Of a stretch of DNA of 50,013 nucleotides, positions 9,854 through 48,418 are shown piece by piece (position 1 is the first letter of the stretch; the number at the start of each line of letters is the position of its first letter). The DNA lies in assembly GCA_016872895.1 (NCBI GenBank), contig VGYT01000003.1, positions 1 through 50,013 of the forward strand. Direction: 5' to 3'. A program made the position numbers and the translations under genes. The notes beneath the pieces were generated by a model. It was not told the DNA's origin. It made no database searches and saw only the letters and a list, made by a program, of their open reading frames with translations. This stretch comes from Planctomycetota bacterium. Lineage in GTDB: Bacteria; Planctomycetota; Phycisphaerae; FEN-1346.

Positions 9854-9927
9854 GCCCCACGCACCGCGTGGGGATGGATGGTGCGGGCCGTTTATCCCCC
9901 GGCGGCGCCGGGGGCTTTGAACCATGC
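9854..9927 (+). mobile_element. MITE copy lacking the left terminal repeat
   Basis: GCCCCACGCACCGCGTGGGGATGGATGGTGCGGGCCG..ATCCCCCGGCGG.GCCGGGGGCTTTGAACCATGC, nearly identical to the 48201-48291 element. Confidence 0.9.
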
Positions 9928-31798: not shown

Positions 31799-31982
31799 CG
31801 GCGCCTTGCCAATTCCCCCGCGCCCTCGGGAAACGCAAGATGACGCCCTGACCACATTGTCCGGAACATTCCTTTTCCCAGCCGCCCCCGTTGGTTGACG
31901 CAAGCGCGTTACCCGCCGTTCAGCGGGGCCGCCGCCCGCAGGCGGCTGAACATGCAGGGGTCCTGGCCGCCGCGAGAAAAGC

Positions 31983-32035
31983 AAGGAGAATGTTGAATAT
32001 TGAATATTCAATATTTCACATTCAACATTCTCCTT
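31983..32035. repeat. AT-rich palindromic element, copy 1 (16-bp outer IR, internal 20-bp palindrome); possible bidirectional terminator
   Basis: AAGGAGAATGTTGAAT...ATTCAACATTCTCCTT with AATATTGAATATTCAATATT (31996-32015). It lies between convergent genes and contains the sulfatase stop codon. Confidence 0.85.
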
Positions 32036-33615
32036 CTCTTTTCCCCCTGCACGCCGGGGCCGTAAGCGGGGTTGGGCTTCGGGAGGACCGCACCGGAGTC
32101 CTTCAGGAATCCTTCGATGAGGGCATCGAGTTCCTTCACCCGGTCGGGCATCTCGTCGGCGAGGTTGGCGGTCTCGCCGACGTCGGTCTTGAGGTTGTAC
32201 AACTCGTAACGGTGGGCGAAGTTCGGGCCGTCGTGGAAGATGCGGATGAGTTTCCAGTCGCCCTTGCGCACATAGACCGACGGCAGCGCCCCCGTGGCGG
32301 GCGTTGAGTGGGGGAAGAAGCAGAAGATAGCCTCGCGCGGCAGGCGGTCCGCCCCGCGCAGCACGGGCACTATGCTCGTGCCGTCGAACTTCAGCCCTTC
32401 CCTGGCCTTAAGGTCGAGCATGTCGAGGATCGTCGGGTAGAAGTCGATGCTCTGGATAACGGCGTCGCTCTTTGCGCCGGGCTTCACCTGGCCGGGCCAG
32501 ATGACGATGCACGGCACGCGTGTGCCGCCCTCGTAGATCGTGGCCTTCCCGCCGCGGAGGGGGGCGTTGCTCGTGATCGGGATGCGCGTGAGTTCGTCTT
32601 CGTTGCCCGTGCCCTTGTGCCCGGTCCAATGGACGCCGCCGTTATCGGAGAAGAAGACGACGATGGTGCTCTCGGCCAGGCCGAGTTCGTCGAGCGCGTC
32701 GAGGAGGCGCCCGACGGCGTCGTCCATGCTCCGGACCATGGCAGCATAAAGCGCGTTGCGCTGGGGGTTCTTCGGGTCGGCCTTAGTGCGATATTTCTCG
32801 ATATACTCCTTCTTGGCGTCGAACGGCGAGTGGACCGAGAAGCACCAGTAGGTCATGAAGAACCGGCGGTCCTTGTTCTCCTTGAGGAACTTCACGGCCT
32901 CGGCGGCCATGCGGTCTTCGATGTGCTCGCCCGGCGGGCCCGTGAAGTTCAACCTGGCCGGGAACTTCCACGGCGCGATGTAACTTCCGGCGGGGCCGGG
33001 GCCGCCCCAGTGCGGCACGTCCGCGTCGTAACCCTGGTGGAGCGGGTCGTACGGCTCCTGCCCCAGGTGCCACTTGCCGAAGTGGCCCGTGCGGTAGCCG
33101 GCATCGTGCAGGGCCTCGGCCAGGGTGCAGTACTCGTGCTTCAGGCGCGTGGCGCTCGCGCAACTGAGGACCTTCACCTCGGGCGAGCCGCGCTCGCCGA
33201 CGGTTTCCTCGAACTTCTCCTCCGGCAGATGGCAGGCCGGCGCGGTGATGCCGATGCGGGCGGGCCAAAGGCCCGTCTGGATGCTCGCCCGGGTGGGCGA
33301 ACAGAGCGGGTTGGCCGCATAGGCGTTGGTGAACATCATGCCGCGCTTGGCCATGCGCTCGACGTTCGGCGTTTCGTAGAACGTGCTGCCGTAGAGCGAC
33401 GTGTCGCGCCAGCCGAGGTCGTCGGCAAGGATGAAGAGAAGGTTCGGCCTGCTCGCGGGCGGCGCGGCGGCCGCGTCGCCGGGGGGTGCTGTGCTTTCGC
33501 TTGCGAAAGCATGGGCCCGGCGCCCGGCGACCATGCTTTCGCGAAGGCGCGAAAGCATGGCCCCCGCGGCGGCCGCCGCTGCGCCCGCCGCGATGAGAAA
33601 TTCGCGTCGGTCCAC
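32008..33615 (-). CDS. Tat-exported Cys-type sulfatase
   Basis: RBS GGAGG plus GTG 33615; [34 protein letters not shown]. Confidence 0.9.
33485..33564 (-). repeat. 80-bp REPIN-like double hairpin inserted in frame in the sulfatase signal region
   Basis: Ungapped 69/80 match (hand count) to the intergenic 38694-38773 element; translated as [27 protein letters not shown]. Confidence 0.85.
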
Positions 33616-38598: not shown

Positions 38599-38693
38599 GG
38601 TTGGATTCCCTTTTTTCGATGATCGTGCTGATTGGCCGGAACCGGCACGCTCCGTTTCGGCATGCGAATCTCGCGGCATCCGCGTCGCCGGAG

Positions 38694-38773
38694 GGTGCCA
38701 TGCTTTCGCGCCTTTGCGAAAGCATGGCCGCCGGCCGCAGGACTCATTCTTTCGCAAGCGAAAGCATGTCACC
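38694..38773 (+). repeat. 80-bp REPIN-like double hairpin (intergenic copy)
   Basis: GGTGCCATGCTTTCGCG..GCGAAAGCATGG...CTTTCGC-aa-GCGAAAGCATGTCACC. Confidence 0.85.
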
Positions 38774-38788
38774 GGCCGGGTGCAAAAA

Positions 38789-38847
38789 GGCAATGAGAAT
38801 GTTGAATATTGAATATTCAATATTTCACATTCAATATTCTCCTTGCC
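38789..38847. repeat. AT-rich palindromic element, copy 2
   Basis: GAGAATGTTGAATATTGAATATTCAATATTTCACATTCAA.ATTCTCCTT, nearly identical to 31983-32035; just downstream of the sulfatase stop at 38873. Confidence 0.85.
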
Positions 38848-38872
38848 GTTTGCCGGCCCACGGCGGCCGGGA

Positions 38873-45928: not shown

Positions 45929-46002
45929 GGTTCAAACAAGCCCCACGCACCGCGTGGGGATGGATGGTGCGGGCCGATCATCCCCCGGCGGTGCCGGGGG
46001 CT
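45929..46002 (+). mobile_element. MITE copy with degenerate terminal repeats
   Basis: GGTTCAAACAAGCCCCACGCACCGCGTGGGGATGGATGGTGCGGGCCGATCATCCCCCGGCGGTGCCGGGGGCT, identical to the internal part of 48201-48291. Confidence 0.9.
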
Positions 46003-46016
46003 CAAGGCAACGCGAA

Positions 46017-48185
46017 ATGGGCAAGTCGGCCGTTCAATCCGCACTCCGCAATCCGCACTCCGCAATCCATGGATGGGCAGTGGCCGCGGCCGCGATCGTC
46101 CTGGCGGCCGCCACGGTCCTGGTGTTCCTGCCCGCGCGGAACTTCGACTTCGTCGGCTACGACGACAACGAGCATGTGCTGGAGAACCCGCATATCCGGG
46201 ACCTCGGCCCGGAGAACCTGGCGTGGATGTTCACGCACTTCTGGGTGACGAGTTACTACCCCGTCCGGCTGCTCTCGTTCGCCATCGACTACCGCTTCTG
46301 GGGCGCCAGCCCCGAGGGCTATCACCTGACGAACATCTTGCTGCACGTCGCCAACGTGACGCTGCTGTTCTGGCTTCTGCTGCGGCTGGCGGCGGGTGGC
46401 ATGCGACCCCACTTGGCGCCCGCCGAAGGGCTGCGGCCCGCAGACGGGGCCTGGCAGGTCGGGGCTGCGGCCGCAGCGGCGGGGCTCCTGGCGCTGCATC
46501 CGCTGGTCGTGGAGCCTGTGGTATGGATCTCGGGGCGCGAGGAACTGCTGATGCTGCTGTTCGCCCTCGGGACGGTGCATCTGCATGTTTCTGCGCGGCG
46601 TGCGGCGGAGGGGTCGGCCCCCCGGCGGCGCGTGGCCATGCTGCACGGCCTGGCCGGGGCGTCGGCCGCGATGGCGTCCATGGCCAACGTGGGGGCGGCG
46701 GCCATCCCGCTTATCGTCACGGCGTACGACCTGGCGGTGGCGCGGATGCGAAGCGTGCGGCGGATCGTGGCGGGCACGTGGTTCCTCTGGGCGCTGGCCG
46801 GCGGCGCCGTCGCGCTCAAGTTCATCTGCGCCAGCCTGGCTGCGCCCGGCCTTGTGCATACGAGCGGAGTCAGCCCGTCTGCGTGGCAGAGGGCGGCGCT
46901 GGCGCTGGAATGGTTCCCGCTGAACCTTCGGACGGTGGTGTGGCCGGCGGACCTGACGCTGCTGTACCCCTGCCTGCTGCCGGAGACGTTCTTTTCGGCG
47001 GAGTCGGCGGCAGGAATCGCGGCGCTGGCGGCAACGGGCGCCGTGCTGTGGCTTCTGCGGCGCACGCGCGCCCTGCTGTTCGGCCTGCTGTGGTTTGTGC
47101 TGGCGCTGGGCCAGACGTCGCCGCTCGTCCCGCACCCGATATACCGTGCGGACCGGTACCTGTACCTGCCGCTGGCAGGGCTGGCGGTGGCCGCAGGGGC
47201 GGCCTTGAGCACCCTGGTCCGCCGCGGCCTTGCGGGGCGCGCCGCGCTGGCGCTGGCGGCGGCCGTGGTGGCGGCCCTGGGTTTCCTCAGCACCAGGCAG
47301 GTGCCGTTCTGGCGAGACGGGATGACCCTGTTTACGCACTGCGTCAGACTCACGCCGGACAACAGCGAGGCCCGCGCGAACCTGGGCATCGCACTGATCG
47401 GGCAGGAGAACTACCCGGCGGCGGCGGCCGAATTGCGGGAGGCCCTGCGGCTGATGCCGCTGGACCCCGTCATCCATTACCACCTCGGCGTGGCGGCGTA
47501 CCAGCAGGAACAGGTGCAGGAGGCGGCCGGACACTTCGCCGAGACGGTGCGCCTGAATCCCCGGTTTGCCGAGGCCCACCACAACCTGGGCATCGCCCTT
47601 GCGCGGCTGAGAGATACCGAGGGGGCCGCACGCGAGTTCCGGGAGGCCATCCGCCTCAAACCGGAGTTGGCGGAGGCGCACGGCAACCTCGGCTGGGCAC
47701 TGCTGCGGCAGGAACGCTATGGCCCGGCCGTGGAGGAACTGCGGGAGGCCATACGGCTTAAGCCGGACTACGCCGAGGCCCGGCGGATGCTCGCCACGGC
47801 CTACGCTCTGGACGGGCGCATCGACGAATCGCTGCGAGAGTTTGCCGAAGCGGCCCGGCTGGACCCCGCTGCCGCCGCCCAGCAGGTGAACCGGGTCGCG
47901 CGGCTGCTGGCGGCGAGCGCGCTTGAACGGTTCAGGAACGGCCCGGCGGCGGTGCGCCTGGCGGCCGCGGCCTGCCGCATGGCAGGGGCGGCGCCCCCTG
48001 AGTTCCTCGACACGCTGGCGGCGGCGTACGCGGAGGCCGGGCAGTTCGAGCGTGCCGCAGAGGTCGCCCGCCAGGCGCTCGATGCCGCCGCAGCCGCCGG
48101 CCGGACCGGCCTAGCCGAGGCGATCCGCTCGCACCTGGAGGCGTTCCTGGCCGGGCGCCCCTGGCGGGAGCCGATGTCGCTCTGA
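46017..48185 (+). CDS. TMTC-like (GT-C) membrane glycosyltransferase with C-terminal TPR repeats
   Basis: FVGYDD, YYPV..LS, GYHLTNILLH, HPL.VEPV.WISGR, ADRYLYLP, W.DG.TLF, then multiple TPRs; start uncertain (46017 or 46080). Confidence 0.85.
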   Translation: MGKSAVQSALRNPHSAIHGWAVAAAAIVLAAATVLVFLPARNFDFVGYDDNEHVLENPHIRDLGPENLAWMFTHFWVTSYYPVRLLSFAIDYRFWGASPEGYHLTNILLHVANVTLLFWLLLRLAAGGMRPHLAPAEGLRPADGAWQVGAAAAAAGLLALHPLVVEPVVWISGREELLMLLFALGTVHLHVSARRAAEGSAPRRRVAMLHGLAGASAAMASMANVGAAAIPLIVTAYDLAVARMRSVRRIVAGTWFLWALAGGAVALKFICASLAAPGLVHTSGVSPSAWQRAALALEWFPLNLRTVVWPADLTLLYPCLLPETFFSAESAAGIAALAATGAVLWLLRRTRALLFGLLWFVLALGQTSPLVPHPIYRADRYLYLPLAGLAVAAGAALSTLVRRGLAGRAALALAAAVVAALGFLSTRQVPFWRDGMTLFTHCVRLTPDNSEARANLGIALIGQENYPAAAAELREALRLMPLDPVIHYHLGVAAYQQEQVQEAAGHFAETVRLNPRFAEAHHNLGIALARLRDTEGAAREFREAIRLKPELAEAHGNLGWALLRQERYGPAVEELREAIRLKPDYAEARRMLATAYALDGRIDESLREFAEAARLDPAAAAQQVNRVARLLAASALERFRNGPAAVRLAAAACRMAGAAPPEFLDTLAAAYAEAGQFERAAEVARQALDAAAAAGRTGLAEAIRSHLEAFLAGRPWREPMSL
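46035..46068 (+). repeat. Heptamer tandem repeat (AATCCGC/ACTCCGC)n
   Basis: CAATCCGCACTCCGCAATCCGCACTCCGCAATCC; translated SALRNPHSAI if ATG 46017 is used. Confidence 0.8.
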
Positions 48186-48200
48186 CAACTGACAAAAACG

Positions 48201-48291
48201 GGCATGGTTCAAACAAGCCCCACGCACCGCGTGGGGATGGATGGTGCGGGCCGATCATCCCCCGGCGGTGCCGGGGGCTTTGAACCATGCC
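48201..48291 (+). mobile_element. Complete 91-bp MITE with 13-bp TIRs and an 8-bp target-site duplication
   Basis: GGCATGGTTCAAA...TTTGAACCATGCC flanked by CAAAAACG at 48193-48200 and 48292-48299; two internal GC hairpins. Confidence 0.92.
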
Positions 48292-48302
48292 CAAAAACGA
48301 AT

Positions 48303-48418
48303 GTCACTTGCCACTTGCCACTTGCCACTTGCCACTTGTAAACTGGCCACTTGCTACTCGCCACTTGCAGTTTCTGTTGCCTTTACCAGTGGCCAGTGAC
48401 AAGTGGCCAGTGACAAGT
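48303..48418. repeat. Inverted heptamer arrays (CCACTTG)n ... (CAAGTGG/CCAGTGA)n
   Basis: About nine degenerate CCACTTG units (48303-48368) face complementary units (48386-48418), upstream of the radical SAM gene. Confidence 0.85.

Follow-up and report, generated by a model that had tools for sequence, protein, structure and literature searches.

The question raised by this locus is what kind of DNA lies between two identical copies of CAAAAACG at positions 48201-48291, and which enzyme could have put it there. The window, by which we mean the whole stretch of 50,013 nucleotides that was analysed, has 66% G+C, many sulfatase genes and one kinase-FGE fusion, a content that fits the Planctomycetota. 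A preliminary description, made from the letters alone, had proposed a 91-bp MITE with 13-bp terminal inverted repeats and a perfect 8-bp target-site duplication, and on these points the sequence is as described: the ends are perfectly inverted (13/13) and CAAAAACG is found 8/8 on both sides. In window coordinates, with the strand given where one is assigned, the layout is as follows.

48193-48200: left copy of the target-site duplication, CAAAAACG, 8/8 identical to 48292-48299
48201-48213 (+): left terminal inverted repeat (tip), GGCATGGTTCAAA, from the sequence itself and a 13-mer count
48214-48278: 65-nt interior between the two tips of the 91-bp element
48217-48236 (+): hairpin A, GCCCCACGC-ACC-GCGTGGGG, 8-bp stem and 3-nt loop
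48237-48258 (+): central segment, with the outer GGGGATG / CATCCCC pair within the long hairpin fold
48259-48278 (+): hairpin B, CCCCCGGC-GGT-GCCGGGGG(C), which is hairpin A inverted, with two compensatory pair changes
48279-48291 (-): right terminal inverted repeat, TTTGAACCATGCC on the + strand
48292-48299: right copy of the target-site duplication, CAAAAACG, 8/8 against the left copy

With up to two mismatches allowed, the 13-mer tip occurs six times in the window against 0.77 expected, a count reached in none of 100 shuffles; a 36-nt core of the element occurs three times against 0.00 expected, and hairpin B is found at four places. The duplication is present at one of the two window copies that have both ends. 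If an extra G/C pair is assigned to the repeats at the ends it can be read as 6-7 bp, and its length was set at 8 bp because related copies elsewhere have 8 bp.

Both internal hairpins noted before are real (A, CCCCACGC-ACC-GCGTGGGG; B, CCCCCGGC-GGT-GCCGGGGG; stem 8 bp and loop 3 nt in both), although the first loop had been given slightly wrongly, being ACC, and the pair proved to be inverted copies: between hairpin A, GCCCCACGC-ACC-GCGTGGGG, and the reverse complement of hairpin B, GCCCCCGGC-ACC-GCCGGGGG, there are two pair changes, compensated on both sides. Each end of the element consists of the 13-bp tip, a GC palindrome and then GATG, and the inverted repeat runs imperfectly inward to the centre. 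As one hairpin repeats the other in inverted form, the element as a whole is an imperfect palindrome, and the full 91-mer folds into one extended hairpin with 36 pairs (dG -37.2 kcal/mol, z -7.9). The idea of REP/IS200-like hairpins set inside DDE-type ends was a misreading, the hairpins being the two halves of this extended inverted repeat. The interior is formed by two inverted GC-rich palindromes directly inside the tips, and is no remnant of the transposase gene.

Three further copies lie in the window.

669-715: 47-bp short form, tip + one B-type hairpin + tip, perfectly palindromic (22-nt arms, 3-nt loop)
9854-9927 (+): one-ended copy with both hairpins, a right tip at 12/13, no recognisable left tip and 4 internal differences
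45929-46002 (+): one-ended copy with a core from GGTTCAAA to GCCGGGGGCT identical to the full copy and no right tip

Four copies had been counted before, and all four are there, but they are not equivalent, one being the 47-bp short form and two being one-ended. The short form is two 'right ends' around one common palindrome; it has no duplication, its flanks matching at 3/8 bases. By our own reading of the alignment, the left tip of the copy at 45929-46002 is degenerate, 10/13. The one-ended copies make up half of the window's four, and their cores are too alike for slow decay.

Both the 91-bp element and the 47-bp short form are non-coding, and each of the four copies lies between genes. The full copy starts 16 bp past the stop of a TPR-repeat gene (ending at 48185) and has a B12-binding radical SAM gene on its other side; the copy at 45929 lies between a divergent sigma-factor gene and this TPR gene, that at 9854 between a 1390-aa gene and a Mrp/ParA-type ATPase gene, and the short form precedes a 296-aa gene. 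Terminator and promoter scans of the window gave no excess over shuffles, the terminator-like matches within the element point away from the upstream gene, and nothing in the analysis indicates a host function for the element. Beside two of the copies, at 48305-48418 and 46035-46068, just upstream of gene starts, there are heptamer arrays (CACTTGC x9, AGTGGCCAGTGACA x2.2, CAATCCGCACTCCG x2.4).

As a kind of element this is ordinary. It resembles other bacterial MITEs, for instance Correia/NEMIS, RUP, ERIC and Nezha (PMC3733652, in excerpt), in being short, non-coding, intergenic and multi-copy, with terminal inverted repeats, a duplication, a long-hairpin fold and no transposase of its own. 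It is unlike them in that its interior is two inverted GC palindromes instead of a deleted IS interior, that a 47-bp tip-hairpin-tip form stands in the same window, and that its end and interior match none found in Rfam, in plasmids or in the literature search. Rfam at gathering thresholds gave 0 matches for the element, and plasmid BLAST with the 107-mer (element plus duplications) no match; the literature search for the exact 13-mer tip returned unrelated primer matches only, and in the literature on Planctomycetes MITEs, Phycisphaerae insertion sequences and IS66-linked MITEs no description of such an element was found. The 91-bp family thus seems undescribed.

The preliminary description had the element moved in trans by a DDE transposase with the same ends, and had suggested looking for a transposase reading frame bounded by the tip. 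The window holds none: tblastn and a Pfam/gene survey found no transposase of the relevant kind, and the profile of the transposase family described below had no match in the six frames of the window even at E<=10. Such elements do exist in other genomes, in a Planctomycetaceae assembly and on plasmids.

Genomes were scanned over 596 Gb with the pattern tip + 0-4 nt + GCCCC, which returned at least 80 loci, with about 90 chance matches expected by our own estimate. Among the loci listed, most are single chance matches in unrelated organisms, the window 91-mer is absent from all, and three Planctomycetota assemblies stood out. The tip identity of the Planctomycetaceae locus L036 and of the assembly JACPWG01 to the window is built into this pattern; only the plasmid elements, which were sought by protein or DNA homology and not by end sequence, are independent of it.

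In L036 a 1793-bp element is bounded by GGCATGGTTCAAA (2001) and GGCTCGGTTCAAA (3793; inverted partner 11/13), and its gene covers all 521 residues of a transposase-like protein, full length with two frameshifts. Elements with these ends measure 1.66-1.8 kb and carry one gene, with proteins of 474-521 aa (typically about 500-520); a Pfam scan of 46 frames from Planctomycetota loci found no other transposase. The L036-type protein family had 2040 matches at E<=0.001 among 8000 scored candidates and comprises 3186 clusters (50% identity) at E<=0.001, with 528 at E<=1e-30. A Pfam domain is absent in 120/120 of the family matches listed, and for 76 of these 120 (hand count) the longest contig is 1.6-2.5 kb, about the size of the element itself. 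RefSeq, Pfam and NCBIfam leave this family of 500-520 aa as 'hypothetical protein'.

Relatives on plasmids were found in 13 records, 12 from Acaryochloris and 1 from Burkholderia latens, all annotated 'hypothetical protein'. The elements are 1663 bp (L082, L084) or about 1697 bp long (L081, L083, L088), with one of 2810 bp in which a foreign IS is nested (L086), and the homology between plasmid copies ends exactly at the element ends. Their tips agree with the window 13-mer at 9-12 of 13 positions, and in L089, found by DNA similarity to L082, the tip is identical to it (13/13). Because the 13-bp ends of the window element bound transposase-carrying elements elsewhere, the reading that fits best is that a DDE enzyme moved it in trans, as had been proposed.

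Common to the plasmid elements, L036 and the JACPWG01 MITEs is an asymmetric two-part end, in which the tip is followed by GG(G/T)NACA(C/G), with a spacer of 3-4 nt at the end on the gene-start side and of 14 nt at the other end, on the gene-stop side. This subterminal motif is absent from the window element, which has the 13-bp tip only. In IS256-type elements a subterminal site is bound by the enzyme through its N-terminal domain. A duplication was found at 0/8 full-length autonomous copies, at 8 distinct sites and with two 100% identical copies among them; several full-length copies are pseudogenised, on IS-rich plasmids, and recombination may have scrambled the flanks of the plasmid copies.

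Two further loci of the genome scan deserve mention in their own right. In the Isosphaeraceae locus L014, an IS-sized stretch of 1785 bp (237-2021) lies between end-like sequences, with a 167-bp MITE nested at 845-1011 and no recognisable transposase inside. In L040, two gene-stop-type ends stand in the same orientation 348 bp apart (1661-2021), and the spacer of one of them forms a hairpin, GCCCCG-AAA-CGGGGG, which recalls the tip-plus-palindrome layout of the window element.

Duplications are found at short, gene-less elements with the same tip. JACPWG01, a Planctomycetota assembly, has at least 7 loci of a MITE family with the same 13-mer and a different interior. Its complete copies number four: three (94, 126 and 257 bp) are flanked by perfect 8-bp duplications (TCAATTTT, GAAAATTG and CTTTTTTT, respectively), the fourth, of 256 bp, has a duplication of 6/8, and two further copies are without a right end. 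The 167-bp copy in L014 has a duplication of 7/8 after a 1-nt shift. All four perfect duplications, that of the window and the three of JACPWG01, are AT-rich; the genomes they stand in have 66-69% G+C. The MITEs of JACPWG01 retain one end of the gene-start type and one of the gene-stop type, and are classic deletion derivatives.

The kind of transposase was assessed by conservation in 43 diverse full-length family members (alignment A2). The catalytic signature consists of D172, present in 42/43, and of D226, D247, H250 and E451, present in 43/43, with 53-55 residues from D172 to D226 and 211-229 residues from the second D to E; the motif has the form D247xxH250 (DxxH) in this family. None of the 43 members reached a curated family cut-off, and matches to profiles, given here as members matched and best E value, were all below threshold.

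NCBIfam IS256 (NF033543): 24/43, 1.2e-7, sub-threshold, all below 150 bits
NCBIfam ISL3: 10/43, 1.2e-6, sub-threshold
NCBIfam IS1249: 6/43, 0.00079, sub-threshold
NCBIfam ISH6: 6/43, 0.0031, sub-threshold
NCBIfam ISLre2: 5/43, 0.002, sub-threshold
NCBIfam IS6: 1/43, 0.00087, sub-threshold
NCBIfam IS66: 1/43, 0.0059, sub-threshold
Pfam DDE_Tnp_ISL3: 11/43, 3.9e-6, sub-threshold
Pfam MULE: 6/43, 0.0012, sub-threshold
Pfam Transposase_mut (PF00872): 2/43, 0.0014, sub-threshold

The IS1595 model was not among the best 25 of the 29 families matched by any of the 43 members. ISL3 elements make an 8-bp duplication and have a DxxH-type motif, and the sub-threshold matches to ISL3 in 10-11/43 members are a point of likeness; these matches are all below the cut-offs and fewer than for IS256. 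A profile search of solved structures had a single, weak match, ISCth4 (PDB 6xg8; E 0.039), in which three colinear stretches place D226, D247xxH250 and E451 on D241, C262xxH265 and E348 of ISCth4 (numbering as in the excerpted text of PMC7780238). As in this IS256/Mutator enzyme, D, D, C/DxxH and E follow in the same order in the linked transposases. ISCth4 itself makes 8-bp duplications and has two-part ends (PMC7780238, in excerpt), as the linked elements have two-part ends and the MITEs derived from them 8-bp duplications. The subterminal motif of the linked elements reads GG(G/T)NACA(C/G) and not TGTAAA. The linked proteins also exceed IS256 enzymes by about 100 aa, and 211-229 aa separate their second D from E; no member lies above a curated cut-off (NF033543 24/43 sub-threshold, PF00872 2/43), and full-length copies with a duplication number 0/8, the duplication being found at MITEs only. 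We conclude from these sequence comparisons that the enzyme is probably a long, divergent relative of the IS256/Mutator-ISL3 group, belonging to neither family by curated criteria.

Taken together, we read the 91-bp element as a MITE whose tips are those of a large unclassified IS family with an IS256/Mutator- and ISL3-type DDE signature, and put the probability of this reading at about 0.7. The ends and the duplication are direct observations, and so are the transposase signature and the presence of the same ends on autonomous elements of other genomes; we infer that an enzyme of this family moved the window copy, and the pathway outlined here, like any effect on the neighbouring genes, is meant in the same conditional sense. 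The element would be a passive, non-coding 91-bp passenger of a transposase encoded elsewhere. A transposase dimer would bind the tips, by analogy with the IS256-family enzyme ISCth4, and either copy the element or cut it out; insertion would take place at cuts staggered by 8 bp, the repair of which would yield the CAAAAACG duplication.

A wider reading is offered tentatively, at somewhat less than even odds: the tip would mark an uncatalogued IS family spread across Planctomycetota, Cyanobacteria and Betaproteobacteria, a deep branch of longer IS256/Mutator-ISL3 enzymes with more than 3000 clusters (50% identity), and the window element would derive from it, its subterminal binding site having given way to GC palindromes. 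If this replacement is true, nothing beyond the tip is needed for mobilisation. Little changes for the window itself, as it would hold a small mobile-DNA relic at four intergenic sites. Beyond it, a transposase family that is very common fragments metagenome assemblies, leaving contigs of about 1.8 kb, and naming the family together with its end signature would make IS and MITE copies recognisable in Planctomycetota and Cyanobacteria. The clean 8-bp duplications of the MITEs, set against full-length copies without any, are a small puzzle for transposition specialists.

The alternative that survives best, unlikely as we consider it, keeps the MITE and assigns it to a different DDE family, either IS6/IS26 or IS1595, as the preliminary description had suggested, or IS66, on account of a gene in the Planctomycetaceae locus L033. 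IS1595 makes 8-bp duplications. They are also made by IS26 (PMC6807381, in excerpt) and described for an ISBst12-group IS66 element (PMC12898284, in excerpt). IS26 has the end GGCACTGTTGCAAA, is 820 bp long and encodes a 234-aa enzyme with D78/D138/E173 (PMC8477213, in excerpt), and by a hand count the window tip agrees with this end at about 11/14 positions, G1, G2 and G7 being in common; it likewise starts with GG, has G at position 7, ends in CAAA and goes with an 8-bp duplication. This likeness is real and not diagnostic: G1, G2 and G7 are common to the ends of several IS families (PMC6807381, in excerpt), and the excerpted Tnp26 paper itself notes the likeness of IS26 and ISCth4 ends (PMC8477213). 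According to the same excerpts, TGT at positions 6-8 is conserved in IS26-family ends and needed for binding; the window tip reads GGT there. No gene of IS6 size (234 aa, 820 bp) or of IS1595 type was found beside these ends, and the linked elements are twice as long as the 820 bp of IS26, with an unrelated enzyme architecture. The suggested IS6/IS26 or IS1595 affinity was not borne out, the enzymes having about 500-520 aa, the spacing D-54-D-~220-E and a DxxH motif, with matches to IS256 in 24/43, to ISL3 in 10-11/43 and to IS6 in 1/43; an enzyme of this architecture with these ends excludes IS6.

As to IS66, the 13-mer in L033 lies 271 bp before a 553-aa gene of the IS66 family (PF03050, 7.4e-58). 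L033 matches the L036 end over its first 96-100 bp only and then diverges; because the match stops there, we read the gene as the neighbour of a remnant. As an autonomous partner of the ends it was rejected, this being a single adjacency beside a remnant of about 96 bp, with the right end beyond the stretch examined. On the Burkholderia latens plasmid, moreover, a gene of the 500-aa family is interrupted by an IS66 element whose end is the usual GTAAGCG. IS66-family elements were thus seen twice abutting a copy of the 500-aa family that is truncated or a remnant (L033, 2272-3933, Planctomycetaceae; L085, 2995-4590, Burkholderia latens plasmid), which may be coincidence or a preferred target.

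Less probable still, and in our view distinctly improbable, is that REP palindromes form a REPIN-like doublet here and were spread by a Y1 (IS200/RAYT-type) transposase whose gene ends at window position 282. Positions 1-282 encode the last 93 aa of such an enzyme of about 224 aa (PF01797 in 35/35 longer homologues), the best named relative of which comes from a Phycisphaerae assembly, a weak pointer to the taxon. About 390 bp downstream of this gene fragment, the 5' side of which falls outside the window, stands the short form at 669-715. The two inverted GC-rich palindromes fold into one long hairpin, and REPINs are likewise inverted palindrome pairs that fold into a long hairpin; one-ended and single-palindrome copies exist in the window as well. 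Y1/HUH enzymes are not known to duplicate their target or to require terminal inverted repeats, whereas the window element has such repeats and an exact 8-bp duplication, as do three related elements elsewhere in the case of the duplication. Its hairpins are without the GTAG or CGTC tag of RAYT-associated REPs as given in the excerpts of PMC3733652, and the 5' flanks of the window copies have no common target motif. A GTAG-tagged sequence, GTAGGGGCACGGC, is found at 527-539, nearer the Y1 gene (245 bp after it), and to judge from its tag and position is the more likely partner of the window's Y1 enzyme.

The same GTAGGGGCACGGC also occurs as a GTAG-tagged palindrome inside the 126- and 256-bp MITEs of JACPWG01 (L017, L022, L058, L065, L075), where it looks like a REP inserted into a MITE. 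At the Y1 gene itself, the last 86 bp are tandemly duplicated (210-295 and 319-404, 99% identical); positions 1-404 contain two occurrences of the hairpin CCTGGGTAGCGTCCCCAGG, and 3.2 repeats of CCCAGGTTTT stand at 287-318.

It is very improbable that the repeats are fixed palindromes with a structural or regulatory role, such as terminators, and that the flanking repeat arose by chance: all four copies are indeed intergenic, with the full one 16 bp past a stop codon, and hairpin A with CTTGTTTGAA after it received a terminator-like score on the minus strand, but terminator sites are no commoner than in shuffles, the only matches face away from the upstream gene, Rfam has no match for the palindromes, and an exact 8-bp match at both boundaries, for which we estimate a chance of about 1 in 65,000 (4^-8), recurs in three related elements.

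The window contains other repeats as well. An AT-rich near-palindrome, GAGAATGTTGAATATTGAATATTCAATATTTCACATTCAA..., occurs between sulfatase genes at 31977-32057 and 38786-38866 with 85% identity and may be another small repeat family. The stretches 33479-33582 and 38676-38779 form a 104-nt inverted pair, 81% complementary, which is made up of GCGAAAGCATGG / CCATGCTTTCGC palindromes and lies close to where two sulfatase genes start. Within 24733-44845, seven sulfatase paralogues, one of only 204 aa and several with twin-arginine signals, adjoin an ECF-type sigma factor and a Ser/Thr kinase with a fused FGE-sulfatase domain.
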